A model generated the notes under the pieces. The model was given only the letters and a program-made list of their open reading frames with translations. It was not told the DNA's origin and searched no databases. Positions 933 to 42,542 of a stretch of 64,000 nucleotides of DNA are shown here, one piece after another (the first letter of the stretch is position 1; every line of letters starts with the position of its first letter). Source of the DNA: Chiloscyllium plagiosum (Eukaryota); contig NC_057757.1 of assembly GCF_004010195.1 (NCBI RefSeq), forward strand, positions 9,061,657 to 9,125,656, written 5' to 3'. Made by a program: the position numbers and the translations under genes.

Positions 933-1831
933 TTATTTATTCATAACGCTCATTCCTGTAACCAGATAGCTTACTGCGTTAGTGATCTTCGCTCTGAATT
1001 GAGACAATGTTGCTGCATAAATAAATGTGTTTGTGCAACAACTTAGGTTCTGCAGCATGAAACCAATTCTTCTGAAGTGATATAGAAAAGGCGAGTAATC
1101 ATCAGGATTAATTCCTCGAATGATGTAATATAAGAAATTTACAACATAGATTGACCACAGGAGGATGAAGCTCCCAGAGATGGTGAAGAGCAAAATCACA
1201 GCCTTCCTTCTGCTCTCCATCTCTGGGTCTCTGTGATTCTCTCCTTTGCTCTCACCCTTCAGCCTCTTCCGGACTCGACTGGTCACTAAAATGTGTCTGA
1301 CTGTCAGAGCATTGAGCAACAGAATTAAAACGAATGGCAGTAAAGGGGTTAAAACTGTATCGAGCCAATCTAATACCACCCACCAAGTCTCAGTATAGTA
1401 GCTTGATTTTGTTAGACAGAAGAATGGCACATTGTTAATTATCCTCTTAAGTTCATACTGAAAGTAGAAGGGGATGTTTTTCAAAGAGAACAAGGTGCAG
1501 GTTGTTGCTAGGACCACAGTCGCAGCTTTCTCAGTGCAATATCTTGTTCTCAACTTCTGACAACAAATGTTCACAAATCTGTCAAAGGAGAAAGTGACAG
1601 TGAACCAGACAGAGCAGTCAATTGCTGCATGAGTCAGGGCCCCAATAACACTGCACACAGGAGTGATGTCCAGGAAACATCGTGGATAATAATAAAAGCG
1701 AAATCTCGCTAGTATAATATCAGTGAATATGACCATCAGATCAGCAGCAGACATAACCACCAGGTAGCGGGTAGAGCATGGTGAAATACCACACTTTCCT
1801 TGAGAAAAGATAGCAATTGCCAGAAAATTAA
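933..1831 (-). CDS. GPR139/GPR142-like class A GPCR gene A, exon 2 (TM1 end to C-terminus)
   Basis: The ORF 933-1760 extends upstream in frame to an acceptor tccccacag|TT AAT TTT CTG (AG at 1833-1832). Motifs: NFLAIAIF, MSAADL (TM2), FSFDRF (DRY equivalent), LLPFVLILLLN (TM5), SFILLW (TM6), CTNTFIY (NPxxY equivalent). No internal stops. Confidence 0.92.
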
Positions 1832-3017
1832 CTGTGGGGAGACAAATGGGAAAAGATGTGGTGAATTATTAATAAGAAGTACAACCTGCCTGTTTCAGGG
1901 AACAATAATAAGATTTTATCAACAACAGTGATCGCCAACACTGGTAGGCACAGAACCCCATTTGAAACATTGATCATACCTCGGTCATGGGACAGATGGT
2001 TGGACTGTCAATAAATCAAACTATCCCAATCTGCTTGGATCAGGTAATCCCCTTCTGTTGACATTAGACTAAATCCTGATCACAGCCATAACAGGACCAG
2101 GAAACAGGTCATCAGAACCTGAATAAGATTGCAAACATGTGTCTTACACAAGTGCAACATAACAGACAAATCGGGCTGCTTCAGTGACAATGTGAGAGTG
2201 TTCGAACTGCTGTGATATTTACAGCAGGTCAAACGTCTTAACAGGACAAACATCTCCTCATGCAGAGATCAGGGTTCAATTACCAAGATTTGAATCTCCT
2301 GACCAGTTGAGAAGGAGAGAATTTCCAGAAGAGATGGTAGTTAGATAAAACTTTACAAATCAAAACGGGATTAATATCCTTCAATTCCTTTGTTTAACGA
2401 AGAAAAAACTGTCACAGATTTAAAATTAACAACTGATCCGTTGGGGACGAGAGCTGCAAAGCTCTCCGACAGTGTGTGTTGAAGTTCTCCCTAACATTTA
2501 TCCTGAATGATTTGTCCATAATTCTCAGAGTATGCTCCCTTATTACAGAATCCCCAAATCGTAGTATTAGTTGATCTTTTCCTGTTAAAATCTTGGATAC
2601 TTTGTTCAGCCCTTAGCCTTCAAAATTCTGGCAAAACCAGGGCTCATTTGCATAACAAAAACAAATAGCTCAGCAGGTCTGGAAGCAACTGCGGGAGTAA
2701 AGCATAGATAACGTTTTGGGTCCAGTGATACTTCCTCAGAACTAACTTGCTGATCTCTCCTCATACCTTCAAAATGCATGAAACCAGTAGAGATGACAGA
2801 ACACTGAGACCAAAAAATGCTGTAACAGAAGTCAAGTTGGGAGTCTCTGGCAGTGGAGAATTGTACTGAGAATGCTACTCAGTGAGTTGCTATCACTGTC
2901 CAGGTGCCTGGCAAAAGTTGACCGGTCAGTGAGCTGGAGACGTTATTGTTCAATAGGTAAAACCAGAGAGCAAATTGACAACAGATTAAAACAAGTTAAA
3001 TTGTCATAATGCCATAC

Positions 3018-3084
3018 CAGGAATGCCAATAATACCAAGGATGGTGTAAAACACCTTCTGCACGTGTTGAATTGGTAGATGCAT
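3018..3084 (-). CDS. GPCR gene A, exon 1 (MHLPIQHVQKVFYTILGIIGIP)
   Basis: ATG at 3084, 22 codons plus 1 nt, donor CCTG|GTATGG. The phase-1 join to exon 2 gives GIP-V-NFL, completing TM1. In-frame upstream ATGs exist, so the start is not certain. Confidence 0.85.
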
Positions 3085-3171
3085 TTTCCTGTTTGAGGTG
3101 ATCTGTCCGTTCAGGCAGCTGACAAGCTCCTTGTTTGAGACTCTAAACTGAAGCATTCCCAGAGACGCTGC

Positions 3172-3177
3172 CTTATA
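3172..3177 (-). promoter_or_regulatory. Candidate TATA-like box of GPCR gene A
   Basis: cagTATAAGgc on the minus strand about 90 nt upstream of the ATG at 3084; based on position only. Confidence 0.35.
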
Positions 3178-3799
3178 CTGTGTGGAAGCTCCTTGGGGAG
3201 ATCGAGATGACAGCATTTGTTGCCGTTTTACACATTTCTGTCAATGAAAAACCAGTTTATAACAAGGAGATTAATCCCAATTCTGAAGGAGTGTTGCTGC
3301 TCAGTACATCATAATGAATTTTTTTAAAAAAAACAAGGGAATCTGGAATCTATTGGCAATAACACTATCCACTCAAATGCCATGAGTCCAATCCAGAGAT
3401 CGCAAATTATTTCATTTGCTGCTGCATCGAGACAATTGATTCCAAGAGTAAAATTATGTCTCCGAACTGTGCTTCCGTACTCTAGGGTAGGAGCTGCCTT
3501 CTTTAGACAAGAATATTTCACTCATTGACTGAAATGTGGTTCTTCTGACATACTGAACCTCTGCTGAGGGCAACATTGAATCGCCACTCCAATTTCCAAG
3601 GATCTGGAGTGACGTAAAGGACCAAGTGACAAGAACATACTGCCTTTCATGGGGGAATGGGGCTCAGTGAAAAAGATGAGATTCCAACAATGGAGACATT
3701 CCTAATCTCCCTTGTGTTATCATTGTCCATCCTTGTCAAGAGGCAACTGGGAATGGGTATTAAATAATGGCCACCCAGTGACTCCAACATCCCACCAAT

Positions 3800-4560
3800 A
3801 ACCCTGGGGGTACCATCTATCATCTAGCCCCTGTGTGTGCCCAGTATTATTCAGAATGATGGTACTCTTCTGTTGCGATATCTACCTTTGGCAGCCTGCA
3901 CTCATAAGAACAGGTTTCCCAAGTTATATCAAGGGGAGTGCAGTTAGGAACAAAGCTTGATGTTAGAGGAGCCGAACTCATGGATCACAGGCTCTGGCCA
4001 TGTGATGGTATGGCCTGTTCATTCACATTTACCTAGAAGTGGTCCCTATTGACCTACGCTATCTTTCCACAGCATATGGGAGGGTGTCACGGTAACCCAT
4101 TCAAATGTCTTTTTGATATAATTCTGATATTTCCAACTTCAAAGGTCCTCATCCCAACTTTTTCCCTCAGGATGATTGGAATTTCTAGCACCAAGCCCAG
4201 TGTCTCACCGAGGTTGTCCTTGCAGCTGGCATTAACCCAGACCTTGGTGAGCTGCTCTCACTGACAGTGAGAGATGTTGCTGTGGGTCTTTTCCTGGAAC
4301 AAATGGTCACGCTGTTTGTCACGAATCCAGGGCGGGTCTTTCCCGTGGCTCGTCTGCCTGAACACCACCCTCAGCGGTTTAATCATCCCGTTACCATAGA
4401 TACTGCACTGGGTATGGCTTTGCTGTTCACCGTCATCCTTGATTGGGCCCTGGCTGATCTAGTTAATTGTCTTGGTGTGACCTTTCAGTATAGCCACTAA
4501 GTGATGGCCAGCCTGATTCACCACTAGTTGTCCCATCGTCTGTGTTCAGTCCTGCTGGGG
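3800..4560 (-). mobile_element. Degenerate viral env / fusion-glycoprotein-like sequence, C-terminal part
   Basis: One frame of about 155 codons with three internal stops (QCSIYGNGMIKPLR...PPWIRD...SHCQ*...CKDNLGETLGLVLEIPII...FEVGNIRII), followed by a frameshifted Cys-containing region. Confidence 0.55.
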
Positions 4561-4569
4561 CACGTTTCA

Positions 4570-7330
4570 CATTTTAAAAAAATATTCAGGATTTTTGGTA
4601 AATTTCTGCGGTGCACCTTTTAGATAGTACACATCGCAGTTAATGAGCGCTGTCGGTGGAGGGATTGAATGTTTGTGTATGTCAATCAAGCTTGTGCCAA
4701 TCAAGCGGGTTGCTTTATCCTGGATGGTGTCAAGCTTCTTGAGTGTTGTTGGAGCTGCCCCCATCCAGGCAAGTGGGGAGTACTCCATCACACCCCTGAC
4801 TTGTACCTTGTAGATGGTGGAGAGACTTTGGGCTGACAGCAGGTGGGTTACTCACTACAGTATCCTAGGCATCTGATTTGTTCTTGTAGCCACTGTGTTT
4901 CTGTAATGATTTCAGTTGAGTTTCTCGTAAATGGTAACCCGAAGGATGTTAGTAGTTGGGGATTCAGTAATGATAATACTGTTGAATACCAAGGGGCGGT
5001 GGTTAGAGTGTTTCTTATTGGTGATGGCATTTGTGTGGCATGAATATTATTTACCACTTGTCTGCCCAAGCCTGGATATCGTCCAGATCTTGTTGCATTT
5101 GAGCACGGATTGCTTCAGTATCTGAGGAGTTCTGAACGGTGCTGAAAACGATGCAATCATCCCGCAAACTTCTGACCTTATGGTGAAGCAGCGGAAGATT
5201 GTTGGGCCTAGGACACAAACCTGAGGGACTCCTGCAGAGGTGTCCTGGAGCTGAGATGACTGACCCTCCACAACCACAATCATCTTCCTTTGTGCCAGGT
5301 ATGACTCGAACCAGCAGAATGTGTACCCCCTGATACCCATTGATTCCAGTTTTTTGAGGATCCCTTGACGCCATGCTTGGTCAAATGTGGCCTTGATGAC
5401 AAGGGCTATCGCTCTCACCTCACCTCTGGAATTCAGCTCTTTTGTCCATGTTTGAATCAAGGCTGTAATGAGGTCAGGAGCTGGGTGACACTGGCTAAAC
5501 TCAGACTGGGGGTCACTGAACAGGTCCGTGTTGAGCGGGTGCTGCTGGATAGTACTGTTGATGACCCCTTTCCATCACTTTCCTGATGGCCGAGAGTAGA
5601 CTGATTGGGCAGTAATTGGCCAGGTCCGGCTTTTTATGTACAGGAAATACCTGGGCAATTTTCCACACTGTCAGGAAGATGCCACTGGACTGGAAGAGCT
5701 TGGCTAAGGGAGCACCAAGTTCTGGAGCACACATTTCAGTACTATTGCTGGAATGTCATCAGGTCTCATTGCCTTTGCAGTATCCAGTGACTCCAGCTGT
5801 TCGATATTATGTGGAGTGAATCAAATTGGCTGGAGACTGGTATCTCTGATGCTGAGGACCACTGGAGGAGCCTGGGATGGATCATCCACTCAGCACTTCT
5901 TAGTGAAGATTTTTTGTGAATGCATCAGCTTTATCCTTTGCACTGATGTGCTGAGCTCCCCCCCTCATTAAGGATAGAGATATTTGTGAAACCTCCTCCT
6001 CCAGTGAGTTATTTCATTGTCCACCACCATTCACGACTGGTTGTGGAAGGACTGAAAAGTTTAGATCTGTTGGTTGTGTGATCACTTAGTTCTGTCTATC
6101 ACTTGCTGCTTATACCATTTGGCATGCGAGTAGTCCTGTTTGGTGGCTTCAACAGCCTGACGCCTCATTTATAGGTATTCCTGACGTTGCTCCTGGCATG
6201 CCCTCCTGCACTGGGTGAAAGTGAGGACTGCAGATGCTGGAGAATAGAGTCAAGATTAGAGTGGTGCTATAAAAAGCACAGCAGTTCGGGCAGCATCTGA
6301 GGAGCAGGAAAATTGACGTTTCGGGCAAAATCCCTTCATCAGGAATGAGGCCAGATTGAGTGTCCTCCTGCACTCTCCATTGAACCTGGGTTGATCCCCT
6401 GGCTTGATGGTTGAGTGGGGGGTATGCCAGGCCATGAGGTTAACGACTGTGTTGGAGTACAGTCCTACTGCTGTTGATGTCCCACAGTGCCTCATGGATG
6501 CCCAGTCTTGAACTGTCAGATTGGTTCGAAGTCTGTCCCATTTAGCACAGTGATAGTGCCCCACAACACGATGGAGATTATTCTCAATGTGAAGGTGGGA
6601 CTTCGTCTCCACAAGGTCAGTGCGGTGGTCACTTCTACCGATACTGTCATGGACAGAGGCTTCTGCAGCTGGCAGATTCGTCAGGATGAGGTCAAGTATG
6701 TTTTATCCTCTTGTTGGTTCCTTCACCACTTTCCACAGTCTGCGTCTAACAGTTATATTCTTTAGGACCCAACCAGCTCGATCAGTAATTCTGCAGCCAA
6801 GCCACTCTTGGTGATGGACATTGAAATCCCCCACCCAGCGTACATTTTGCTACTCTCAGTGCTTCCTCCAAGTATTGTTCAACATGGAGGAGTACTAACT
6901 CATCAGTCGAAAGAGGACGGTAAGTGGAAGCCAGTAAGAGGTTTCCTTGCCCATGTTTAAACTGAAGCCATGAGACTTCAGTGGGCCCGGAGTCAACGTC
7001 AAGGACTCACAGGGCAACTCCTTCCTGACTGTATCCCACTGTGGCGCCAGCTCTGCTGGGTCTGTCCTGCCGGTGAGACAGGACACATCCAGGGCTGGTA
7101 ATGGTGGTGTATGGAGTGTCATCTGTAAATTATAATTCCGTAAGAGTGACTATGTCAGGCTTTTGCTTGTCTCGTCTGTTGGTAAGGAGGACTTTGCATG
7201 GTCAACAGGGCTGTTTGTGTTTTTGCCATTGTCTGTTCCAGTTCTAAGGTTGATGCCAGGTGATCCGTCCAGTTTCATTTCTTTGTTGCAACTTTCTAGC
7301 AATTGATGCAACTGGGTGGCTTCCTCGGCT
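4570..7330 (-). mobile_element. Degenerate CR1/L2-group LINE ORF2 (endonuclease plus RT)
   Basis: Fragments NYCPISLLS, WTKELNSRGEVRAIALVIKATFDQAW, GVPQVCVLGP and MEYSPLAWMGAAPTTLKKLDTIQDKA with many frameshifts. A Penelope terminal fragment is inserted at about 6215-6350. Confidence 0.8.
6310..6348 (-). ncRNA. Minimal type I hammerhead ribozyme motif (Penelope terminal repeat), core intact
   Basis: The minus strand reads cattc-CUGAUGA-a-ggga uuuu gccc-GAAAC-GUC; stem I pairing is poor. Confidence 0.55.
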
Positions 7331-11614: not shown

Positions 11615-12792
11615 GTTACTAGACAAGTTGATGAGGATTGAGGGGTGGATGTTGTGTATATGGACTTCAGTAAGGCATTTGATAAGGTTCCCCATGGTAG
11701 GCTCATTCAGAAAGTCAGGAGGAATGGGATACAGGGAAATTTAGATGCCTGGATACAGAATTGGCTGATCGACAGCAGACAGTGAGTGGTAGTGGAAGGA
11801 AAATATTCTGGCTGGAAGTCTGAGGTGAGTGGTGTTCCACAGGGCTCTGTACTTGGGCCTCTATTGTTTGTAATTTTTATTAATGACTTGGATGAGGAGA
11901 TTGAAGGATGGGTCAGCAAGTTTTCAGACAACACAAAGGTTGGAGATGTCGTTGACAGTATAGAGGACTGTTGTAGGCTGCAGTGTGACATTGACAGGAT
12001 GCAGAGATGAGCTGAGAGGTGGCAGATGGAGTTCAACCTGGATAAATGCGAAGTGATGCATTTTGGAAGGTCGAACTTGAAAGCTGAGTACAGGATTAAA
12101 GACAGGATTCTTGGCAGTGTGGAGGAACAGCGGGATCTTGGTGTGCAGGTACATAGATCCCTTAAAACTGCCACCCAGGAGGACAGGGTTGTTAAGAAAG
12201 CATATGGTGATTTGGCTTTCATTAACAGGGGGATTGAGTTTAAGAGCCGTGAGATCTTGTTGCAGCTCTGTAAAACTTTGGTTAGACCGCACTTGGAATA
12301 CTGTGTCCAGTTCTGGTCGCCCTATTATAGGAAAGATGTGGATGCTTTGGAGAGGGTTCAGAGAAGGTTTACCAGGATTACGATTGAGCTCGGACTGTTT
12401 TCATTGGAAAAAAGAAGGAAGAGAGGGGACCTAATTGAGTTGTACAAGAGAATGAGAGGCATAGATAGAGTTGATAGCCAGAATCTTTTTCCCAGGGCAG
12501 AAATTGTTAACACGAGGGGTCATAGTTTTAAGCTGTTTGGCAGAAAGTATAGAGGGAATGTCAGAGGCGGGTTCTTTGCGCAGAGAGTTGTGAGAGCATG
12601 GAATGCATTGCCAGAAGCAGTTGTGGAAGCGAGGTCATTGGAGATATTTAAGAGACTGCTGGACATGCATATGGTCACAGAAATTTGAGAGTTTGTACAT
12701 TAGGTTTACCTCACATGAGGATCAATGTCGGCACAACATCGTGGGCTGAAGGGCCTGTTCTGTGCTGTGCTGTTCTATGTTCTAAGTTCTAT
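11615..12792 (+). mobile_element. 5'-truncated CR1 LINE (RT C-terminal half plus tail)
   Basis: VDVVYMDFSKAFDKVPHGRL, SGVPQGSVLGPLLFVIFINDLD, LVRPHLEYCVQFWSP; 3' tail gttctatgttctaagttctatg. Confidence 0.95.
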
Positions 12793-13365: not shown

Positions 13366-13697
13366 TGGCACGATGGCACAGTGGTTAGCACTGCTGCCTC
13401 GCAGCGCCAGAGACCCGGGTTCAATTCCCGCCTCAGGCGACTGACTGTGTGGAGTTTGCACGTTCTCCCCGTGTCTGCGTGGGTTTCCTCCGGCTGCTCC
13501 GGTTTCCTCCCACAGTCCACAAGTGCAGGTCAGGTGAATTGGCCGTGCTAAATTGCCCGTAGTGTTAGGTAAGGGGTGTGGGTGGGTTGCGCTTCGGCAG
13601 GGCGGTGTGGACTTGTTGGGCCGAAGGGCCTGTTTCGGGCCGAAGGGCCTGTTTCCACACTGTAAGTAATCTAATCTAATCTAATCTAATCTAAATC
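13366..13697 (+). mobile_element. HE1/V-SINE, full length, with (TAATC)n tail
   Basis: Near-identical to the copies at 32864 and 44597; internal duplication of gggccgaagggcctgtttc. Confidence 0.92.
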
Positions 13698-14250: not shown

Positions 14251-15988
14251 GGTAATCAGAAGTCTGGTGAGAAACTGTTCAAGCACTGCCTAGATTTGAT
14301 GGGAAGATGTGGGAGCCTTTTCCATTTCACTTGAAAAGCTGGCTGACCAAATGCAGTGGTCAGAGACTATGTGGGTTTTGCTGATCCAAACCAAACTTGT
14401 AGGTGGAGCTCGTGAGGTATTCGCATCAGTAGCAGAGGATGTGTCTGGGGAGTAGGAGGAAGTGAAAAAAGCCATCTGAAGTGCATATGGGCTTGTACCA
14501 GATGCCGAATACAACGTTTCAGGAATCTAAGGAAGGATCCTGGTCAAACTTCGCAAGGGTCAAGCAAAGTAATTTTGAAAGGTGGATAAGAGCTTTAAAA
14601 ATAGAGCAAACTTACAATGCTCTTAGAGAGACGTTTATTTTGAAGGAGTTCAAAAATTCATTGCTTGACATAGTGCGAACTCATGTGGAACAGCAGAGAG
14701 CTAAAACAGCAATGTTAGCAGCGGAAGTGGCTCATGATTATGAGTTGGTCCATGAAAACCCATTTTGGGCTTCCAGGCTGAACTTCATTCCATGAGAGAT
14801 AGAAATTGGACAAAGAGAAATCCTCAAGTGAAAAGGGAAAGGGAGACCTCGGTGAAGATCATGAGGATAACGCATGACAGGGTAAAAAGGAAACCTTTGA
14901 AGGGGGCAGAGAAGGTAAAAGGTTCTGTTGTTCTCATTGCAATAACGCAGACCACCTGAAATCATAGTGTTGGTGGGCGAGGAAAAAACCAGACGTTGGA
15001 AAACAGGACAAGTCTGGGAGTTTTGTTGAAATGGTGACAGAATGCACAGTGGAAACTGGAAAGCTGCATCAGAGGTTGGAGAAGGAGCAAGTGCTGGATT
15101 CGCTAAGAAAACATAACTACCAAGGTAAATTTTGTTCACATAGGCCAGGAGACGCAGGTAGAGAAGTTACAATATTAAGGGACACATGATCCTCTCAGTC
15201 TGTGATGCTGAAGGAGGAGGAGATATGTACTCCTGAAGGACTATTGCCAGAAAAGGTACTGGCATCAGGAATTCACAGTGAGACGAAACGCGCTCAATAA
15301 TGTAAACTAAAGTTAGACTGTCCAGAAAAGAATGGAGAATTTGTAGAAGGAGTACAGGACAAACTCTCAGCTCCAAGAATAATATGAGTCCTTGCAAAAG
15401 TCATAGCTGATGCACTGGTAGGAATGCTGACTACTGTGATTAAAAAGCTAGTGGAGACGCAGGCAGCTGAAGCAATGCAGGATTCTTATCTGGGAATTTT
15501 CCCTGATTGTGTCATAACGAGGTCACAGAGTAACTAGTTGAAACAGGAGAGATCCAAGTGTATCGATAAGGAAGCTGAAGTGGCATTAGTAGAGACCGCC
15601 TTCGATCAGATAGTTGAGTCAAAACAGGAGCAAATACGTGGGTTATGCAAATATTTTAGCTCAGCTCAACTAATTCAGTTACAGCAGAAATATGAAAATT
15701 TAAATCAGTTGTATCAAAAGGCATATACAGAAAAACAGTCCGAATATATCCCTGAGTGTTATTACCTGAAAAAATATGTTTTCATGAGGACATGGAGACC
15801 ATCACATGTTCAGGCAAATGAGAAATGGGCAGAAGTCCGTCAAATCGTTTTTCCAGTGGGGCAAACAACGGAAATGTTGCGATTGGCGCATGAGCTACCA
15901 CTTGGAGGTCATTTCGGAATGAGAAAAACACAGGCTTAAATACAAATCCATTTTTACTGGCCTGGACAAGGATGTGTTCGAATTTTCC

Positions 15989-24145: not shown

Positions 24146-24287
24146 TAAATTGCCCGTAGTGTTAGGTAAGGGGTAAATGTAGGGGTATGGGTGGGTTTCG
24201 CTTCGGCGGGTCGGTGTGGACTTGTTGGGCCGAAGGGCCTGTTTCCACACTGTAATCTAATCTAATCTAATCTAATCTAATCTAATC
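24146..24287 (+). mobile_element. HE1/V-SINE 3' half (split), with (TAATC)n tail
   Basis: Resumes at taaattgcccgtagtg, essentially where the 5' half at 21888 stopped. Confidence 0.9.
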
Positions 24288-24830
24288 AGAATAAAAGGCT
24301 ACAGGGCGCAGGAGACCCCTATGCATTTGTGTTAGAACGCCGGACGCATATCATTCCTTTTCGTTAAAATAAACCTGAAAGGCTGTGTGTAATCTAATCT
24401 AATCTAATCTAATCTAATCAGAATAAAAGGCTACAGGGCGCAGGAGACCCCTATGCATTTGTGTTAGAACGCCGGACGCATATCATTCCTTTTCGTTAAA
24501 ATAAACCTGAAAAGGCTGTGTGTAAGCCAGGATAAGGTAAAAACGAGGTACGGATGCTGCCTGAATTGCTGTGCTCTTCCAGCACCACTGATCCAGAATC
24601 TGTAAGCCAGGATGCTGAGCGTAGGTGCTGAGGTTAAGCACCGTTTCAGTACCCAAAAGGTTGGTGGCTTTTCAGGTGTCCAGTTCACCTGGGTCGGCTG
24701 GTTTGGCGAGGACGCATGATAGACAGGAATATCCAGAACTCAATAGTCTGGTAGCGAATGTCTGCAGTAATTCACCATGCCCAAAAAGGACAAAAGCTCA
24801 GTTCGTGCAGTGGGTGGAGAGAGGTTAATG
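24288..24830 (-). mobile_element. Endogenous retrovirus pol remnant (RT thumb/connection)
   Basis: PPTARTELLSFLGMVNYCRHSLPDY...WTPE...FWVLKRCLTSAPTLSILAYTQPFQVYFNEKE*YASGVLTQMHRGLLRPVAFYS, after removing a 67-bp insert (24534-24600) flanked by the 13-bp repeat tgtaagccaggat. Confidence 0.8.
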
Positions 24831-25049
24831 ATGGCTGCGAAGTGATCCTGAGACAGTGCTCTGAGACCATGGTGGGGAAAGCAGACACAACAACAGCATT
24901 CAAGAAAAACCTGGACAAAAACATGGATACGAAGAGAATATTGGGATACTGATCCTGTTAGTGAAAACAGTTTCAGGAAGAAGGGCAAAAAAGTGTCGGT
25001 TTTGGATTGGACGGCCGAAGGGCCTGTTCCTGTGCTGTATTGTTCTTTA

Positions 25050-26200
25050 TTCTTTGCTCCGAATACAATCTGCCACATGTCTGCCCATCTCACCAACCAG
25101 TTTGTGGGCGGCACGGTGGCACAGTGGTTAGCACTGCTGCGGATACTGATCCTGTTAGTGAAAACAGTTTCAGGAAGAAGGGCAAAAAAGTGTCGGTTTT
25201 GGATTGGACGGCCGAAGGGCATGTTCCTGTGCTGTATTGTTCTTCATTCTTTGCTCCGAATACAATCTGCCACATGTCTGCCCATCTCACCAACCAGTTT
25301 ACATGTTCCTGTAACCTACACTGATCTTTGTCGCTATGAACCTTGTTACCAATCTTGATGACGTCTGCCAATTTGCTCAACATTCCCCTCACATTGTCAT
25401 TTATATCATATCAGTGTGTAACAAACAACACGTGTCCCTGTTCTGATCCTTATGGGCCACTACTGGCCACCGGCCTCACGTTACTCAAACAGGCTTCTGC
25501 CACTATCCTTTGCGTCCCATTATTAAGGCAGTTTCTTTTATCTATTTTACCAAGTTTTCCTCTATTCTATGTGCGTTAACCTTCTCGATCCGTCTTCCAC
25601 GTGGGACATTAATAAAAGCTTCGTGAAAATCAAGATAAACCACAACAATTGAACTACCCTCAACTACACACTTAGTCAAACTTTGAATTCATTCCAACAA
25701 ATTTGTTACAATTGAACTCCCTCTGACAAAGCCATGTTGACTGTCCCTAATTGAACGATCATTTTCCAAGTGAATATTAATTCACTCCTTTAGAATTTTC
25801 TCCATTAATTCCTTCAATAATAAACCGGTCTGTAATTTCCTGATTCATCTCCACCGACCTTCTTACAGACATATTAGTCATCCTCCACTCTCCTGGCACT
25901 TCCTCTGTGGCCAGAGTGGAAGTAAAAATTTGTGTCAGAGCCTGTGCAACTTCCTGCATTGCTCCCCACACCAAACGGGGACACAATTCATCCGGGCCAG
26001 GAGATTGTTAAACCTCACAGAGCCTCCAAAACCGCCCGATTTCTATGCAATTTCACAACAGTCCCTTTTCCTGAACTCCATACATGTGTTCTTCTTTTTT
26101 AAAATGAACTTTGAAGAGAAATATTCTTTTAACACCCTTCCAATCTTCTATGGCTTCACAAGCAGGTTGCCTCCTTGGTCCCAATGTGCCCTACTCATTC
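25050..26200 (-). mobile_element. Degenerate CR1 RT fragment
   Basis: LSKLADVIKIG...LVRWADMWQI and IFTSTLATEEVPGEWRMTN. A separate plus-strand CR1 tail lies at about 24830-25055. Confidence 0.75.
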
Positions 26201-29430: not shown

Positions 29431-29913
29431 TGATACTCACATAATCTTGATATTACAGTTTTTCCCGTCTCATAATTTACTTTTTAACAAAATACTCTCT
29501 GTCTCTCCTGTGTCTAAATGGACCTCCATTTGTGGTAACTCATCGAATCTGTTTTGACACAGATCTCAGTTCTGAAAAAGGGTCGTATCAGACACAAAAT
29601 ATTAAATTGCCCTGCAGATGCTGCCAGACCTGCTGAGTTTTTCCAGCATCCTCTGTTTTCGCTGTAAGTAATGACTCCATTCTGTTGTTCCTAAATTCTT
29701 TTTCTGAAGATATATGATTAGGATCAGATTGGGGTCTTTCACATTTCACCTTTCGTGCATAAGACGTCAAGTCAAAGACATTTCAAAACAGCTTCTTTTG
29801 CTGTTGCAATTTCACAATTAATTTCCAAATACAAAACAACGAATGCTCCTGGGAGTATCACGTCAGGGATAAGTGTCTCACCCACTTCATGTGGAGTAGT
29901 GAATCTTACCGAA

Positions 29914-29983
29914 ATGCATGGTGCACCAGAAGGTCTGCTCTTTGCCATTTATTATCCCATCCTTGCAGCTGTCGGGGTGCCAG
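29914..29983 (+). CDS. GPR139/GPR142-like GPCR gene B, exon 1 (MHGAPEGLLFAIYYPILAAVGVP)
   Basis: ATG at 29914, 23 codons plus 1 nt, donor CCAG|GTACTG. YYPILAAVGVP parallels FYTILGIIGIP of gene A, with the same phase-1 intron position. Confidence 0.85.
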
Positions 29984-30121: not shown

Positions 30122-31416
30122 TTTTTTTAATTTCAAAATATACTTTATTCATAGAAATAGATCTTTGGTACTTGTACAATTTGTCATTTCGTTCATAGAT
30201 ATATATATATTGCATGTCTTAACATTACAAAGAACAGATTGAAATTAATCGAATTTACAGTTATCCTATTTACAGTTCCCTTTATTAACCATCCAGTCTC
30301 TTAGTATTTAGCTGTGGCTTCAGCGGAACCCACCTACTGAGTGGGTGCCCTGTTATACGATAGAAAATGAACCTTCTTTAACCCCCAGTTTATGGGGTTA
30401 CCATTGTCCATTTGACTGTCCTGTCTCTGGGGTAGCTGTTTACATCCCCATGGTGAGCACGAACTGTTGGACCCTCGCTGGGCTGAGGTAGCTATCCAGC
30501 TCCTCACTGGGATCATTTACCTGCTCTGGTGTCATTGAGCCAAGGAAAGGGTCTGCACCATCCAGTTCTGTGTCTGACAATGGGACTGTCAGAGGATCGC
30601 AGCTCTCAGTTACCTGTAGTTGTGGGGCAGTGGGTACCCCTGGTTCTCACTGGGTGGAGGGTGGACTTTGGGGGGTCCGTTGTTTCCGGGTTGGGAGGAA
30701 ATGCCCTCCTCTTTACCTATGGTGCTCTGTCTCTTCTTCTGATGGTGATGACCTTCTTTGCGCCCTCTCCCTCGTGCAGCTGTCTTTTCCCCCTTTGCTG
30801 GGAGGCTTTGGGGGCCTGGCCGGATTTTCTCTTCCTGTTTTTAGCAGGTATCCACTCCTCTGCCTGCTCGATTACCTCCTCCTCCAATGCTTCCTTCTGC
30901 CCAGCTAGAGCTAGGATCAGCTGCTGTGTCTCCTCCACTCCAGCCTGTTCTTCTTTCTGGGTGCCACCAGACTCCGTTTCCCTGCTGTCTAGGTGGACCT
31001 TACTGGTCTTAGGGGGTCCACGGTTCACATTGCCACCTCCAGCCATCTGTGCGTAAGTGTTCTTTCTGGGTGCCACCAGACTCTGTTTCCCTGCTGTCTA
31101 GGTGGACCTGACTGGTCTTAGGGGGTCCACGGCTCACATTGCCACCTCCAGCCATCTGTGCGTAAGTGGGGCCCCCCCGTCTTGGGCAGGTCTTGTACAT
31201 GTGGCCCGTCTCTCCGCACAGGTTGCAGCTCTTTGCTTCCTGACAGTCCTTAGTCAGGTGACCCTCCTGTTTGCAGTTCCTGCAGATGGTCACCTTGCAG
31301 TCCGCCGCCACGTGTCCCGACGTCCCGCAGGTTCGGCACACTTTCGGTTGCCCTGCATATGTCAGGTAGCCTCTGTTCCCTCCAGTTGCGAAGCTTGAGG
31401 GTGGGTGAAGAATGTT
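30122..31416 (-). mobile_element. L1/Tx1-type element retaining the ORF1 3' part (three CCHC knuckles), 3' UTR and poly(A), with no ORF2
   Basis: NILHPPSSFATGGNRGYLTYAGQPKV-CRTCGTSGHVAADC...CRNCKQEGHLTKDC...CNLCGETGHMYKTC; ORF end YLSPARVQQFVLTMGM*; AATAAA and an A-tail at about 30150-30122; ggaaaga on both flanks. Confidence 0.8.
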
Positions 31417-32534
31417 GGAAAGACATTTGCTTTGAGAATATCAGTGTATCTCTGTGGCTATAGTTGTGTCTTTCGACCACAATATTGTTTAGCCTATACT
31501 ATCACTTCTCTCTTTTAAGTGAATATCTTCTTGACTCATGCATAACAATTTGTCCCCTTTAACAGCATTCCTTTTAAACTATCATCTATTGTAATATTCC
31601 TACCAGTGGATCATATATCTCCTATTTCAATTTGCAAGTTTTTGACTTAATATGTCAAGAAACTTAATGTTTCTTTTATCATTGTTAATAGTCTGACTGC
31701 TGATGTAATTCCAAGCTTTGAGCGACCAATCTGAATGAATGATAGCCACTAGCTACAAGAGAACGTTGTGTATTTGTATCACCTGTACTGTAGTGAGACA
31801 ATGTTGTCACTTTGAGAGGTTATTTTGTACCTTTTTCAGGAAAAGTTGTTGTAAGGCAAAGGTCTGATCCATAATAGTAGTAAGACCGGCAAGTTACCAA
31901 TTACAATGCTGACCATCGTGATGAGAATAACAATGTGGTCAGTTGGCAATTGTGTTTTCAATTCGATTCTTAAATATAGAGAGAATGTGGGGGAAAAGGT
32001 GATCGTACACAGCTCCTAACTGTTGGTATACAGTCAGCTGAAGACACCCCAACCAGAAGTGTGTGTGTGTGGGGGAGGGAGTGGGGCATGTCAGAGAGGC
32101 ACAAGGGGATACTCGCAGAGGACCATTCTCATGGCAACTAGGGCGAGGCAGTAAATTCTGGCCCAGTCGGTGATAATGCCAATAGTCCATAAATGATTCA
32201 GAAAAGTATGGTATAAGGTATGTTTCTCAGATGCATGTGATCATTTTGTAAAATAACTGTAACACTGGAGAGCTTTGACAGAGTTATCTATTGATCATAT
32301 TATATGCAGAAATTTAACCCAAAAAGGGCCTTGTTACAACATTGTCGGGTCTCGAAAAATGTGCCATGAAGTTTGCGTTTGAGTCCCTTCTGTGCCTGAT
32401 GTGTATCGTAACGTGCATGAACTGGTGGCACAAGATTAGTTGCACGTTCTGTTCCTGCCGTGCAGTGAAGTTCATGAAGTACATTTAACGCACAAAGATC
32501 CCTGGTTTGTCATGTTGCTAATCTGTAAGCAATA

Positions 32535-32607: not shown

Positions 32608-32863
32608 CATTTCGTCCAAACGTAGGGATTGAGGCAAAGAACCATTGACTAATTATGCCCGATGGATGGAGTTAAAAAATCACACAACACCAGGCTATAG
32701 TCCAACAGGTTTATTTCAAAGTGCATCCAGATAAACCCATTAGACTATAACCTGGCGTTGTGTGGTTTTTGACTTTGCCCACCCGAGTCCAACACCGGCA
32801 CCACCAAGTCTATGGCAGTAGGTTGACCTGCCCACCCTCATCGTTATCACAAAGGATCATTAC

Positions 32864-33200: not shown

Positions 33201-33476
33201 AATGTTACACAGGGTCCCAACCCCTGGGTCAGAAGTTCATGCCCTCTTCAGGTATCTCATAAGTGATCCCAACAGGTTGATTTGAAATAATTATGAAGGA
33301 AAACATGTTGACACTGACATGGAGTATTAGCTGGAGGTATCCATGTCGAGAGTTTAGTGCTGGAAAAGCACAGCAGGTCAGGCAGCATCCGAGGACTAGG
33401 AGAACCTATGTTTTGGGCATAAGCCCCTGATCATTACAACAAAGGATCATGTTTCACTGTGACCCAACCCCTGGCA

Positions 33477-35745
33477 TTTTGGCGATATTAGGCAAGAACT
33501 TTCAAAAGCTGATTGCGGGCAGATGTTTGAAGGTAAAGGGACGGCTGGAAAATGGGAAGCCTTCAGGAATGAGATAACGAGAGTCAAGAGAAAGTATAGT
33601 CCCGTTAGGATGAAAGGAAAGGCTGGTAGGTATAGGGAATGCTGGATGACTAGAGAAATTGAGGGTTTGATTAAGAAAAAGAATGAAACATATGTAAGGT
33701 ATAGACAGGATAGATCGAGTGAAGAGTATAAAGGCAGTAGGAGTATACTTAAGAGGGAAATCAGGAGGGCAAAAGGGGGACATGAGATAGCTTTGGCAAA
33801 TAGAATTAAGAAGAATCCAAAGAGTTTTTACAAATACATTCGGGAAAAAAGGGTTACCAGGGAGAGAATAGTACCCCTCAAAGATCAGGAAGGTGGCCTT
33901 TGTGTGGAGCTGCACAAAATGGGGGAGATACTAAGTGAGTGTTTTGCATCAATATTTACTGTGGAAAAGGATATGGAAGATATAGAATGTTGGGAAATAG
34001 ATGATGACACCTTGCAAAATGTCCATATAACAAAGGAGGAAGTGCTGGATGCCTTGAAACGCATAAAGGTGTATAAATCTGCAGGACCTAATCAGGTATA
34101 TCCTAGAAACCTGTGGGAAGTTGGAGAAGTGATTGCTGGGCCTCTTGCTGAGATATTTGTATCATCGATAGTCACAGGTGAGGTGCTGGAAGAATAGACG
34201 TTGACTAACGTGGCTAACTTGTTTAAGAAGGGTGGTAAGGAAAAGCCAGGGAACTATAGATCAGTGAGCCTGACGTCAATGGTGGGCATGTTGTTGGAGA
34301 GAATCCTGAGGGGCAGGATGTACATGCATTTGAAAAGGCAATGACTGATTAGGGATAGTCAACATGGCTTTGTGTGTGGGAAATCATGTACAACAAACTT
34401 GATTGATTTTTTTCAGGAAGTAACAAAGAGAATTGATGAAGGCAGAGCAGTAGATGTGATCTATATGGACTTCACTAAGGCGTTCAGCAAGGTTAGATCT
34501 CATGGAATACAGGGAGAACTAGCCATTTGGTTACAGAACTGGCTCAAAGGTAGAAGACAGAGGGTGGTGGTGGAGGGTTGTTTTTCAGACTGGAGGCCTG
34601 TGACCAGTGGAGTGCCACAAGGATTGGTGCTGGGTCCTCTACTTTTTATCATTTACATAAATGATTTGGATGTGAGCATAAGAGGTACAGTTAGTAAGTT
34701 TGCAGATGACACCAAAATCGGAGGTGTAGTGGAAAGATAAGAAGGCAACCTTGATCTTGATCAGATGTGCCAATGGGCTGAGAATTGGCAGATGGATTTT
34801 AATTCAGATAAGTGTGAGGTTCAAATGATTTGGATGTGAGCATTAGAGGTACAGTTAGTAAATTTGCAGATGACACCAAAATCAGAGGTGTAGTGGAAAG
34901 AGAAGAGGGTTACCTCAGATTACAAGAAGATCTTGATCAGATGTGCCAATGGGCTGAGAATTGGCAGATGGATTTTAATTCAGATAAGTGTGAGGTTCTG
35001 CATTTTGGGAAAGCAAGTCAGAGCAGGACTTTTATACTTAATGATAAGGTCCTAGGGAGTGTTAATGAACAAAGGGACCTTGGAGTGCAGGTTCATAGCT
35101 CCTTGAAATTGGAGTCGCAGGTAGATAGGAAAGTGAAGAAGGTGTTTGGTATGCTTTCCTTTATTGGTCAGAGTATTGAGTACAGGAGTTGGGATGTCAT
35201 GTTGGAGCTGTACGGGACATTGGTTATACCACTGTTGGAATATTGTGTGCAATTCTGGTCTCCTTCCTATCAGAAAGATGTTGTGAAACTTGAAATGTTT
35301 CAGAAAAGATTTACAAGGATGTTGCCAGGGTTGGAGGGTTTGAGCTATAGGGAGAGGCTGAACAGGCAAGGGCTGTTTTCCCTGGAGCGTCGGAGGCTGA
35401 GGGGTGACCTTATAGAGGTTTACAAAATTATGAGGGGCATGGATAGGGTAAATAGGCAAAGTATTTTGGGGCATAGGTTTAGGGTGAGAGGTGAAAGATA
35501 TAAAAGAGACCTAAGGGGCAACAATTTCACACAGCGGTTGGTATGTGTATGGAATGAGCTGTCAGAGGCTGGTAAAACTGCAACATTTAAAAGGCATCGT
35601 GATGGGTATATGAATAGGAAGGGTTTGGAGGAATATGGACCGGGTGCTGACAGGTGTGACTAGATTGTGCTGGGTTATCTGTTTAGCATGGACGGGTTGG
35701 ACCGAAGGGTCTGTTTCCATGCTGTCCATCTCGAAGATTCTATGC
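33477..35745 (+). mobile_element. 5'-truncated CR1 LINE (about 2.3 kb of ORF2 plus tail) in the intron of gene B
   Basis: ORFs at 33523, 34372 and 34830 carry [32 protein letters not shown] and LEYCVQFWSP; internal duplication at about 34659-34999. Confidence 0.95.
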
Positions 35746-37623: not shown

Positions 37624-38534
37624 CTAACTTGGCAGTTGTTGTAATCCTATCCAGAGGAAGGTGCGGTCTCACCAGATGCATCATGTGCTACCTATTCTTC
37701 ATGGCGGTGACAGACATGTTGGTCATTATTACAGCTGTAATGTTGAACCGTATTGTTGGAATGTACTTTCCATTCAGCATCCTGCATATCACCTCCGTCT
37801 GTACTGTTAGTTTCGTTCTACTGGCTGCAAGCAGGGATTGTTCTGTCTGGGCAACTGTCGTATTCACTATTGATCGTTTTGTAGCCATTTCTTGCCCGAA
37901 ATTGAAGCCAAGATATTGCACAGAGAAAGTAGCAGCTGTGGTTATAGGGGCAGTTTGTGGGATGAGCTGCATCAAAAACACATTCTGGTATTTCATACAT
38001 GAACCATTATATACAATCGGTAATGTAACATGGTATTGCAAAATTAAGTCTATATTTTATACCTCACCTGCATGGGTTGCATTTCATTGGATTGATCGCA
38101 TTTCAATGCCTTGTCTACCATTTGTTTTGATCTTACTGCTCAACGCTGTGACTGTCAGACAAATTATAAAGGCCATTCAAACTCGCTCAAGACTCCATGT
38201 CCGCAAACAAGTGGAAAATCAGAATGACACGGAGATGCGGAACCGGAAAAAATCCATCATCCTCCTCTTCTGTATCTCGGGCAGTTTCATCCTGTTATGG
38301 CTACCGTATGTGTTAACATTTCTCTATGTCCGAATTGCAAAAGTGAATTATTTCTCGGGTTCCACTTACAATGAGTCCAATTTTAATCTGGAAGAAAGCG
38401 GGTATATGCTTCAGATCTTAAGTTCCTGTATAAACCCATTTATTTACGCAGGGACCCAGAGTAAGTTCAGAAATGAGTTAAGGGCAGGCATTAAAGTTTC
38501 CATCAGTTTTGTTGTAAGGATCTTAAAATTTTGA
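37624..38534 (+). CDS. GPCR gene B, exon 2
   Basis: Polypyrimidine tract and acceptor ttgcag|CT AAC TTG; open to TGA at 38534. Motifs MAVTD, FTIDRF, CLPFVLILLLN, SFILLWLP, NPFIY. The intron to exon 1 is 29984-37623 (7640 nt). Confidence 0.92.
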
Positions 38535-39005
38535 CATGTAATAGACATTCCATGCACAAAGACCTATTTCTATAATCTTCCAGCTGGAGCTACAAAGAGA
38601 AAGTGAGTTACAAGGGGGCCTGATTTACTTATGTCTGATTTAAGAAAGCTCGTACTTCCGAACACAATCTCATTCAGGGCTACAATTCTAAAGACGCAGC
38701 CCTTACAACCTTTATACTGTCCTACATTGTGTTCTGATTTGCAAACTCCAATCAAAGACTGCCTGACACATATACAGACACACGCAAAGGCATAACTCAG
38801 CATCATTACACTCTTTTGGCTACCACTAAAATCTGCATAACACACACAACACGATTTGTTTCTTTCTCTGTTGTGTCCTTAAATAATCTACAACACACGT
38901 ACACAGTCTCACCATTGTCTCCCTCTGCCAGGTACTTTGAAAATTTCTATCTAACACATACAAACACGTGCACACATGCACGTTTATACAAACTCATACG
39001 TTCAT

Positions 39006-39016
<11 letters not shown>

Positions 39017-39036
<20 letters not shown>

Positions 39037-39062
39037 AACAAGCATCCACACACACACACACA
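39017..39062. repeat. (CA)n microsatellite; others at 11004-11024 (CT), 23221-23278 (TG) and 57015-57037 (CA)
   Basis: Read directly from the sequence. Confidence 0.9.
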
Positions 39063-39629
39063 TTCTTTGACCTTCACATCCCTCTTCTAGCAGATGGAAA
39101 ACCTCAATCACAGGGTTACAACCTCACATTCCCCTCCCTCACCTGGGTGTAATAATCATCCTCCAGTTTCCACCTGGGGCTTTGTGACCTTGTTACCACC
39201 CAGTCAGGAAACATCCCAGGATGTTCTTTCTCTAACGCCGCAGTTGTCTGATATTTCACTGGCCTTTCAACCGCAGTAGACATCATTCCCACCTGAGATC
39301 TAGCTATGGCAGCACCAAGGTTTACACTGGACTTTTGAACCCAATAATTTCTGTGTTACCTCGACCACCACTTCACCAATTTTCAACGGATTCTCCAAAC
39401 TCACTTTATATCATGTGTTATGAAGTTTAAGGTGTGCACTGTACTTTGAAGAGAGTGTGAATGCTGTTCTGAATTGAGAGATTACGAGCATCTGTGTATA
39501 TGACCAGAACAGCAGTCCTAGAGTATACTGGAAAATTGAAAATATGTCACATTTGGCTGTGAAATACATACCTGAGTTTTCTCTGCTTTTTTGACCACAA
39601 TTCAAATTTAACTGATCAGTTTAAAGCAT

Positions 39630-40194
39630 GCTCCAGGATGCTAATACCCAATTGCACTTGAAATTATTGTTTTGCCAACATCGAACCAATGAGACGATCC
39701 AAGGTTGGGGATATCAAAATAGAGGTATGTTGAAAATCAGAGAGAGAGCAACTGCCATCGAAAGATACCCAAGAAATTAGGAAACATTTTCTATCAAAGG
39801 TACCTTTTCATATGAAACACACTCACAATAAAAAGAAAGAAATGACCAAGGAAATTCAGCAGCCGGAAGAGTGAAGTCACAGAAGACCACAGTGGCTGTG
39901 TGATTTTGAAGTAAAGTTAATGTGATTTTAATAAGTGTCTTATTGGAACAGCATATTGTTGTAGAGTTGGAGGCTGGCAATAAGCAGCTAAGAGAAAGGA
40001 GGGGCTTAGAGTTGTGAATAGTTGTTGTTTAATGTTCACTTGTGGAGTTTAAAAAAATAAATTGATATTATATTCTTAAAATTGTGGAACTTGTGACTTC
40101 TCCATCACTCATATTTTAACAGATTACGAGGCAGGGTAAGGTTTTCTGAGTGTTTGGTTTAATAAAAAGAGGGGTTCACCCCGGTGTTGTAACA
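39630..40194 (+). mobile_element. Solo-LTR-like repeat (related copies at 48066-48534 plus and 61938-62540 minus)
   Basis: The three loci share tcactcatattttaacagattacgaggc...tttggtttaat and two end in a (g/c)taaca-type terminus; the 5' boundary is uncertain. Confidence 0.55.
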
Positions 40195-41662
40195 AGTGGA
40201 ACAATGCTCTTCTCACTATGAACTACCAATATTACCACATTTTTCTGACAATACTCCTCCTGAATTACATTTCTCTGGTCAAATTACATGCTCCTGCCTA
40301 CTTCTGAAAAACTGAATTTCTTTATCTACTCCTACTGCCGTGCGTGAGTAAACCTCACTTAAGCAAGTAAATTCTTAAAAGCATTCTTGCACTTTTTCCT
40401 CTCACAACTCCTGACTGGGCTGTACATCCTTTTGCAGCTTTTTAGCTTCCACTGTGCTGTCCTTTACCACTTCAACAAAATTTACTGGTTTATCCTGTTC
40501 ACCCACGTCCGTCTCCCAAGTGCTTTTTCTAAGCCACCAAAGCTGTGACGTCAAGTGGCCTCCTGAAGACATCTGAGCATTTATATTCCTGTTTCCCCTT
40601 CATGGGTTTCCTTTTTACCCTATGGCAAATAATCCTTACTATTTAAAACGAGGTCTCCTTTTCCCTTATCACCTGAGGATGTCACTTTTCTCCAATTTCT
40701 ATCCCTCACAGCTTGACAATGACGTCAGAAACCAAAGGTTGTTTTATGAACCGACTCATAATAATATACCATTCTTGCTGGTAATCTTGCAGTCTTACCT
40801 CTCTGTTCTTCAACATGAGCCATCAATACTTCAGAAAATGAAGTTTGAACTGTTCCAAAATAAGTGTTTCTCTAAGAGGGACAAATGTTTGATCTAGTTT
40901 CAATGCCTGCATCCACCTATAATGAATTTGTTTGATTCTTTCAAACTCCATTTACATTTAACTTAATTCCCTTCTTCGATCCTGAGACATTGTCTGTTGA
41001 CTTCTGGTCCAAGCTCACATACACTTAAGATGGCATGTTCCACCTCACTATAGCTCCCAGGGTAACTCCTCTGATAGTGAAGCAATTACCACAGGAGCTT
41101 TTCAGCCAGAGATTGTCCTTCAGACCAGAGCAGTTCTGATTGATCAATATATCATTGCATATGAATGACTCTATAATCTTTCGCTATTAATTCTGTGTCT
41201 TATGATCCTACTCGAAAATTACCTGATGAAGGAGCAATGCTCCAAAAGCTAGTGCTTTCAAATAAACCTGCTGGATATAACCTGGTGTGGTGTGTTTTTA
41301 AGTGATGCCGATGCTGCCAGAATTCTGGGATTTGCCAACAATTTCTGTTTTTTTTAATTTCATTCCCATTCAGCCCCATTAACACAGCAGCTTTATCTCC
41401 CAACTTTGTTTGAATCAACAATACCGAAATGGTCACTCACCCTGTCTGTACCCGTACATACACTTGGGGACAGACGGTTTCTTGTACTCGACGTCACATT
41501 TTTGGAAGAAACTCTGGCTTCCCCGTTTGTTATTTCAGCTCCAATTATTTCAATAAATCTCTGAATACAGTGACCCATTTGAAAATCTCACTGGGTCCTC
41601 AATCCAACTGGTCCCTTTGCCTCCAGGCTGATGGATAATGTGTTTATTTTCCTTCCTCCCAG

Positions 41663-42542
41663 CTAACGTACTGATGACCTGCATCCTTCTTTATAAAGAT
41701 TGTGAATTGTCTCCATGTGTCAGACGTTACCTGGGGGCAATGGCAGCGCTGGATCTACAGGTCATGATCCTTGACCTGATATGGAGACACATTCTCATTG
41801 TTTGCCAGGAACAGTTCTATTTCCTGGAGTTCATCCCCGTGTGTAATATCCACGCTGTCCAGCTTTATGCAGCCACTCACTGCTCTGTCCGGTTCACTGT
41901 CACGTTCACCTTTGATCGATTTGTTGCCAGAAGCTGTAAATGTAGCAGTGAGAAAACAGCAGCTGTGATTCTGGGATTAGTGACCGTTCTGAGCTGTTTA
42001 AAGAACATTTTCTGGTATTTTATGCTCACTGCTCATTACTTGCACATGAACAACTCTGGTTTCGTGATGTAAAAGACAACATTGTTTACTCTCTCCTCTG
42101 GGTCACAGTCGAGTTCCTCCACCACATTCTAACCCCGTTTCTCCCATTTCTCCTAATTCTGCTACACAATACTTTCACCGTCAGGAATATTTTAGGGACC
42201 AGCAGAGCTCGCAGGACTCCAGACTCACACCAATGGGGACGCTCAGTCTGACACAGAAATGAGAAACCGAAAAATATCCATCATTTTAACGTTTGTGATC
42301 TTGGCCAATTTTATTCTGTTATGGTCAATGTTAACGGTGTATACTGTATGGTACAGGATGGATGATTTGCGATATGACACACTGAATCTAGATTGGAACC
42401 AGGCTTCATGCTGCAGCTCCTCAGTCGCTGCACAAACACCGTGGTTTATGCCGTGACCCAGACTAATTTCAGACAGCAGCTAAAGAATGTGCTGAAATAT
42501 CCCTTCACCCAAAAACCTCAATCAATCAAATTCACTCATTAA
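41663..42542 (+). pseudogene. GPR139-like GPCR exon-2 pseudogene (gene C)
   Basis: Acceptor ccttcctcccag|CT AAC. Homologous blocks (RYLGAMAALDL, FTFDRF, LTPFLPFLLILL, EMRNRKISIIL, GFMLQLLSRCTNTVVY) lie in different frames, with frameshifts near 42055, 42215 and 42390 and a short deletion after DRFVA. Confidence 0.88.

Follow-up and report, generated by a model that had tools for sequence, protein, structure and literature searches.

A large receptor family in the shark Chiloscyllium plagiosum as a candidate chemosensory repertoire

GPR139 and GPR142 are class A orphan G-protein-coupled receptors (GPCRs) activated by L-Trp and L-Phe (PDB 7vug, 9m42), and the activation of GPR139 by these amino acids is stated to need the residues F3x33, H5x43, W6x48 and N7x38 in the available text of PMC5430874. 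An orphan receptor with three subtypes, GPR210, has been placed near them in coelacanth, gar and teleosts by Rinne et al. (PMC6504862, available text). The known olfactory repertoires of sharks comprise only tens of genes according to the accessible part of 10.1101/2024.05.23.595469, and a paucity of GPCRs in cartilaginous fishes is stated in that of PMC8455134. The present study concerns a stretch of 64,000 nucleotides from Chiloscyllium plagiosum (NCBI RefSeq assembly GCF_004010195.1, contig NC_057757.1, positions 9,061,657 to 9,125,656 of the forward strand; hereafter the window), the three seven-transmembrane (7TM) receptor genes A, B and C that it carries, and the genome-wide family to which they belong. 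An initial annotation had described these genes as a birth-and-death cluster of GPR139/142-like receptors and a possible shark-specific sensory repertoire.

The family is one of class A (rhodopsin-like) GPCRs and, as judged from sequence, appears to be a new family of a known type, an expanded repertoire of sensor GPCRs, with a candidate function. It is considered here a likely overlooked chemosensory (olfactory-type) receptor repertoire, with a probability of roughly 0.55; two of its intact members are A and B, and C is a remnant.

The family resembles GPR139 and GPR142 in that they are its nearest solved structures by profile, in its two coding exons with a phase-1 intron before N1.50 and in the retention of W6.48. 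It differs from them in forming a separate clade at about 30% identity, in carrying DRF instead of DRY, in pairing a cysteine at 3.25 with one in the second extracellular loop (ECL2) where shark GPR139 and GPR142 are without Cys at 3.25, in being without R6.51 and most of the Trp/Phe residues, and in having thousands of copies against one. With the olfactory (OR), TAAR, V1R/ORA and V2R receptors it shares clustered birth-and-death, a variable ligand face, promoters with Olf-1/EBF-like (O/E-like), homeodomain and TATA elements and, in A and B, a short N-terminus; it differs from them in its peptide-receptor-like lineage, in the intron inside the first transmembrane helix (TM1) and in matching no OR or V1R Pfam model.

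Size, distribution and origin of the family

The genome (3.56 Gb) was searched for exact matches to a TM3 pattern, W-x-T-V/I-x-F-T/S-x-D-R-F, with the reversed pattern as the control. A total of 2,144 matches were obtained against none for the control, and the pattern recovered 46 of the 53 loci found independently by protein search, which together suggest about 2,400-2,500 family copies. The genome-wide count is thus far from the few copies that would have spoken against a large sensory family. First-look protein searches gave 7,930 candidates with B as the query and 8,236 with A; scoring was limited to the best ~130 for each query, and the two scored lists were nearly disjoint. The copies are concentrated on contigs C8, C37, C39 and C41-C50.

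Among 100 sampled sites bearing the TM3 motif (40 of the 102 sites of a synonymous-codon subset and 60 of the first 100 listed, from C1-C8), 43 were open, 43 broken and 14 gapped, the open share of the ungapped copies being 43/86 (95% interval 40-60%). Because small unplaced contigs carry 29 of the 102 subset sites, some of which could be allelic duplicates, the estimate is given as a range, and the family is predicted to hold roughly 800-1,200 open main exons in Chiloscyllium plagiosum.

A recognisable exon 1 lies within 10 kb of exon 2 at 17 of 20 diverse loci. The exon-1 donor pattern has 1,803 matches genome-wide against one for its control; this figure was rejected as a count of whole genes, because 200 kb of C8 (1,890,001-2,020,000 and 2,700,001-2,770,000) hold five C-subfamily first exons and neither a second exon nor its flank. 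The first 10 Mb of C8 contain 58 exon-1 matches and 18 TM3-motif matches. A ~1.1-kb element on this contig occurs both upstream of exon 1 and inside the intron, and the C-subfamily introns (e.g. at C8:6.75 Mb) carry long satellite arrays of ~65-bp and 40-bp units just before exon 2. The excess of first exons on C8 possibly reflects assembly gaps, or else the amplification of first-exon modules alone, which might permit swapping of the N-terminus.

All 120 listed of 1,436 matches are chondrichthyan, the nearest named relatives being from carpet sharks and other cartilaginous fishes. Their automatic names include probable GPR139, GPR15-like, capa receptor-like and others, and RefSeq annotates the family genes singly under generic names, which bears out the suspicion that they were hidden behind generic labels. 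The family is also represented in skates, rays and a chimaera, with subfamilies shared with rays and a chimaera, so that the expansion began early in the cartilaginous fishes; the idea of a shark-specific repertoire is therefore not tenable, the sister gene moreover being found in salamanders.

A PDB search with the family profile ranked GPR139 first (E 2e-15), narrowly ahead of the TRH receptor, with the PrRP receptor also near. Single-sequence PDB searches ranked GPR139 below AT2R, CXCR2 and GPR15, and labels based on single BLAST searches are thus unreliable. The genome has one GPR139 (L055, C21:58.73 Mb) and one probable GPR142 (L054, C24:44.31 Mb; E 1e-91 to human GPR139), both with a TM1 intron like that of the family; within this genome the family comes closest to them, with ~30% identity. 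Near the end of C21, some A-subfamily copies are 0.5-0.7 Mb away from GPR139; this proximity is probably fortuitous, the ends of contigs being rich in family copies. A further open frame, at C9:94.39 Mb (locus L052, positions 211-2007), resembles somatostatin receptors and spans 599 codons; its ECL2 contains an in-frame tandem repeat of ~230 aa rich in Ser, Val, Gly, Asn and Pro, which may be either a genuine insertion or an assembly artefact.

A representative-sequence search found closer relatives in salamanders, coelacanth, teleosts and amphioxus. A careful tree of 30 rows supported the family at 97/96 and placed it as sister to a salamander gene at 100/98. The careful tree, built without the shark genes L232 and L233, also united the family with the orphans of bony vertebrates (99/98), leaving GPR139 and GPR142 outside, and an approximately unbiased (AU) test against a grouping of the family with GPR139/GPR142 gave p=0.00019. 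Membership in the GPR139/GPR142 clade was rejected on both counts. Two sister subtypes have single-copy orthologues in the shark, L232 (C26:36.60 Mb) of the coelacanth/teleost type, 64% identical to Latimeria, and L233 (C98156) of the anchovy type, both with the TM1 intron. The three orphan subtypes formed three clades with a Shimodaira-Hasegawa-like approximate likelihood ratio (SH-aLRT) support of 97 in a tree of 25 rows, which was computed in quick mode only, as was the 77-row tree mentioned below.

As placed by these trees, the family is an expanded member of a three-subtype orphan lineage, the salamander type being its sister. This lineage is probably the GPR210 of Rinne et al., a candidate match made by description and not by Ensembl accession: both have three related subtypes, and the single shark copies L232 and L233 have the intron of the family. 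The GPR210 survey differs in being without cartilaginous fish ('shark' has no match in the available text of PMC6504862) and in reporting no expansion.

No OR or V1R Pfam model was matched by A or B, for which 7tm_1 was the only match at E<=0.01, and the tree groups the family with the GPR139-like orphans. The nematode Srw family (PF10324), an expanded chemoreceptor family of the FMRFamide/MIP-receptor-like group, was also considered, as some members weakly pass its cut-off and Atlas clusters contain 16-42% Srw. Srw membership was rejected, the family search having returned mostly galanin receptors with weak matches; the Srw scores are shared with galanin receptors and the family represents an independent vertebrate expansion.

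Conserved core, variable outer face and promoters

Across the 86 open copies analysed, D2.50, D3.49, R3.50, F3.51, N5.58, N7.49 and Y7.53 are invariant, whereas the majority of the pocket positions have entropies of 2-3.3 bits. D3.37 and the C3.25-ECL2 cysteine pair mark the family. The residues of the Trp/Phe site are mostly lost, F3.33 being kept in 6, H5.42 in 32, W6.48 in 81 and N7.39 in 2 of these copies; genes A and B each retain only the tryptophan of the four, and R6.51 is absent from the common residues of the family. As regards ligands, the GPR139/142-like identity assigned at first is hence not supported, given the separate lineage and the lost amino acid site.

Selection was analysed with our own implementation of the M1a and M2a site models after removal of the columns near indels. 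For the C subfamily (20 sequences) twice the log-likelihood difference (2dL) between M2a and M1a was 367, with a nonsynonymous to synonymous rate ratio (omega) of 7.4 at 6% of sites, and all 15 selected sites are extracellular. For the A subfamily (27 sequences) 2dL was 66 and omega 3.7, all five sites being at 2.61, 3.32, 7.36 or in ECL2. Four neutral simulations gave 2dL of <=1.2. In these two larger subfamilies 62-66% of the codons have omega of 0.14-0.17. The variable ligand-facing regions noticed in the window thus correspond to diversifying selection in two of the three subfamilies and not to uniform purifying selection. The structure of one C-subfamily exon 2, as modelled with AlphaFold (predicted local distance difference test score, pLDDT, 86), comprises the inner half of TM1 to TM7 and helix 8, and by its secondary structure the selected sites belong to ECL1-3 or to the outer ends of TM5-7. 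A fold search with the model retrieved peptide receptors generally without separating them, GPR139 having rank 33.

The upstream regions of the family genes carry olfactory-type promoter elements, which adds to the sensory-family pattern recognised earlier. In 19 aligned paralogous promoters of the A subfamily the whole -140..-1 region is conserved, and the O/E-like site, at 10 bp, forms its longest stretch without any variation. Of 13 promoters, six have the sequence TCCCWGGAG no more than 200 nt from the ATG, compared with 0.9% of the 954 background tiles, and in seven promoters the O/E-like site lies 20-22 nt before a TATA-like box; the strict palindromic TCCCNNGGGA was found in none of the 13. 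Genome-wide, the O/E plus TATA pattern has 184 matches against 89 for the control, many of them within a repeat, and the composite TAATTR-NN-TCCCWGGAG 76 against 16. On the 15-Mb contig C44 there are 22 composites against 0.07 expected, and 16 of these (one being a training case) are followed on their own strand, at a distance of 0.6-8.7 kb, by a known family exon 2; three other geometries gave 0, 1 and 0 matches. The composite has the spacing of the mouse Lhx2-Ebf composite as described in the available text of PMC11643329, which is known from olfactory enhancers (PMC5608512, PMC11643329, both in part), and O/E, homeodomain and TATA sites are reported to mark mouse OR promoters in the accessible text of PMC3247239. 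The homeodomain plus O/E composite may therefore be a candidate Lhx2/Ebf-type switch, clearest in one clade.

Four RNA runs were aligned to one C-subfamily gene, A and B being outside the comparison. About 2% of a single-cell run (X19; 13 million records, no tissue label) was read and gave sense reads with a 3' bias, the depth climbing to 27 where exon 2 ends; most are only 82-95% alike and are thus taken to derive from paralogs. Fourteen contig sets of possible RNA origin contained 27-47% of the words of a C-subfamily exon 2, which counts neither for nor against its transcription. Some family sequence is present in polyadenylated RNA, which has no bearing on tissue.

Genes A, B and C and their surroundings

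The features of the window, which lies on contig C48, are listed in the table. Six-frame translation and tblastn detected no 7TM genes in it other than A, B and C. Genes A and B are divergently arranged with 26.8 kb between their start codons, and each is intact with two coding exons separated by a canonical GT..AG phase-1 intron in TM1 before N1.50. DRF, YCTEK and EMxxRxKxxILLF are present in both, and 7tm_1 is matched with 72.9 (A) and 78.2 (B) bits against a cut-off of 30.5. Their overall identity is 45%, rising to 60% in the regions of the second and third intracellular loops (ICL2, ICL3) and falling to 33-38% in the three extracellular regions. The strong divergence of the extracellular loops noted earlier is thus real, and is not confined to them, since TM1/ICL1, inner TM2 and TM7/helix 8 are likewise only 37-41% identical.

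Gene C has six deletions (3, 10, 5, 1, 2 and 10 nt) relative to its best sampled paralog, at 82% nucleotide identity, and in-frame stops. No exon 1 was found for it within the window, where the only exon-1 donor motifs are those of A and B, and going upstream from its exon 2 the homology to paralogs ends after ~200 bp; gene C is therefore regarded as an orphan-exon remnant. Two intact genes and a broken one had been predicted correctly. The very short N-terminus, the phase-1 TM1 intron at GxP|xN and the shared intracellular motifs, attributed at first to all three genes, hold for A and B. For C, the N-terminus and the GxP side of the intron are out of view with exon 1 missing from the window, its subfamily has a long N-terminus (~53-60+ aa), and CSSEK stands at the YCTEK position. 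The 77-row tree placed A, B and C in three separate old subfamilies, which argues against a recent local triplication; of the proposed tandem expansion, the large birth-and-death family stands and a recent local origin of the three genes does not.

The cluster extends past the window on C48, where further copies of the A, B and C types lie at 8.897, 8.970, 8.998, 9.018 and 9.032 Mb. The decayed long interspersed element (LINE) fragments, one of them inside the 7.6-kb intron of gene B, are what we take to be CR1/L2-like; long terminal repeat (LTR) retrotransposon-like fragments lie between A and B.

Table. Receptor genes, promoters and repeats of the window (positions counted from its first letter)
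Feature	Position	Strand	Description
Gene A promoter	3170..3200	-	O/E-like site ~21 nt before a TATA-like box
Gene A exon 1	3018..3084	-	22 codons + 1 base; short N-terminus and outer half of TM1; phase-1 GT donor
Gene A exon 2	933..1831	-	N1.50 to stop; intact 7TM receptor, 321 aa spliced
Duplicate of the gene A exon 2 3' end	554..663	-	decayed; ~110 bp, 75% identity
Gene B promoter	29815..29873	+	homeodomain-type site (-99); O/E-like site 29846-29855; TATA-like GATAAG 22 nt later
Gene B exon 1	29914..29983	+	23 codons + 1 base; phase-1 GT donor
Gene B exon 2	37624..38534	+	intact 7TM receptor, 326 aa spliced
Gene C	41663..42542	+	broken remnant, exon 2 only; fast-evolving, long-N-terminus subfamily
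LINE reverse-transcriptase fragment	5050-5574	-	decayed
LINE reverse-transcriptase fragment	12011-12685	+	decayed
LINE reverse-transcriptase fragment	33463-35660	+	decayed
LINE reverse-transcriptase fragment	51234-52984	-	decayed
Zinc-knuckle gag-like fragment	31012-31440	-	in the gene B intron
LTR-retrotransposon-like fragment	15538-15936	+	between A and B
LTR-retrotransposon-like fragment	24743-25243	-	between A and B
(TAATC)n microsatellites and short tandem duplications	13667-13694, 24253-24525, 24944-25300, 30951-31168		microsatellites at repeat ends; duplications of 109-197 bp

Candidate functions and their meaning

As an olfactory-type repertoire, the family would be activated by Lhx2 and Ebf-type factors in olfactory or related sensory neurons, probably with one or few family genes per cell. 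Each receptor would bind a different water-borne ligand, and the near-invariant inner face would couple all members to one G-protein pathway. Peptides or similar large polar cues are likelier ligands than free Trp or Phe, since most of the selected sites belong to ECL2, ECL3 or the outer ends of TM5-TM7, and both the ancestry and the fold are peptide-receptor-like. The wider proposal adds to the main olfactory receptor families a fifth, unrecognised one in cartilaginous fishes, with about a thousand genes, a GPR210-type, peptide-receptor-like origin and the Lhx2/Ebf logic of mammalian odorant receptors; it is put forward tentatively, its chances falling somewhat short of even.

Several observations weigh against an olfactory-type role. 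EBF is also a B-cell factor, O/E sites being EBF1 B-cell sites too, and Lhx2 has been reported in pre-B cells. The motif TCCCWGGAG was chosen after the promoters had been viewed, one clade supplied five of the seven best cases, the enrichment of homeodomain sites on their own is weak (p 0.03-0.07), and the tight composite is absent from the promoters of A and B, in both of which the O/E-like site is present. As given in the available text, the published mouse composite pattern is loose, and the composite is depleted from OR promoters (PMC11643329). The eight B-subfamily sequences gave no signal of positive selection (p=0.43), and gene conversion, CpG effects and multi-base changes can inflate the signals of site models. 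Only 1 of 14 C-subfamily loci has an exon 1 within 8.8 kb, the pairing of exons there being putative. The RNA evidence comes from unlabelled tissue, none of it tied to nose, taste bud or barbel; X19 also contains antisense reads, has a depth below 1 over exon 1 and shows no exon1-exon2 splice joint, a contig from another run continues into the intron without splicing, and all four runs have the same variant letters, a pattern expected of a single copy with broad read-through.

Among the alternatives, immune or host-defence sensors on leukocytes or barrier epithelia, detecting microbial or damage-derived peptides in the manner of the FPRs and the mast-cell MRGPRs, survive best and are still considered unlikely. 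An omega of ~7 on exposed loops rather than in the deep pocket would fit an arms race, and the double use of O/E sites in B cells points the same way. Catshark OR-family genes are mostly expressed outside the nose, spleen included (10.1101/2024.05.23.595469, accessible text), and the transcripts found here come from a single-cell run without a tissue label. A fixed homeodomain plus O/E composite beside a TATA box is, however, the signature of olfactory neurons. To our knowledge, moreover, the known innate GPCR families are far smaller than the ~1,000 genes estimated here.

Rather less probable is a non-olfactory neuronal role, in chemosensory cells of skin, gill or gut, in MRGPR-like somatosensory neurons, or as identity or wiring receptors for endogenous peptides. 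Lhx2 and Ebf are active in many neurons, the nearest solved relative by profile is the GPR139 of the brain, followed by the TRH and PrRP receptors, and the model fold resembles peptide receptors; strong diversifying selection and the death of 50% of the genes would nevertheless better suit external, changing ligands.

It is improbable that the copies are mostly non-functional passengers spread inside repeat-rich segmental duplications. Half of them are broken, C-subfamily copies have kilobases of flank and satellites in common, gene C is an orphan exon and first exons occur on C8 without second exons. Such passengers would not, however, be expected to show strong constraint over most codons of the two larger subfamilies, selected sites confined to the outer face, conserved promoters and subfamilies common to rays and a chimaera. 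That the genes are true GPR139/GPR142 paralogs sensing L-Trp and L-Phe is highly improbable, since the profile match, the common phase-1 intron and the database names are outweighed by the single-copy GPR139 and GPR142 elsewhere in the genome, the low identity, the AU test and the loss of F3.33, H5.42 and N7.39 from most copies.

The family was found undescribed in the literature retrieved, figures, supplements and subscription papers being outside the search; it is not mentioned in the available texts of PMC11406177, PMC8455134, PMC12208981, 10.1101/2025.06.08.657570 and 10.1101/2024.05.23.595469, although a tandem-cluster table of 10.1101/2025.06.08.657570, itself available in part, could list it.

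The size of the family rivals that of the mammalian OR repertoire, and surveys of the four known olfactory families would not be looking for it. If immune, it would constitute an unknown and very large array of innate sensors in the oldest lineage with antibodies. If olfactory, it would resolve the paradox of the small repertoires and reveal a new origin of vertebrate chemoreceptors under an old, shared regulatory code; a fifth olfactory family, if true, would be about twenty-fold larger than all the known shark olfactory receptors and would explain the good sense of smell of sharks despite their tiny OR repertoire.

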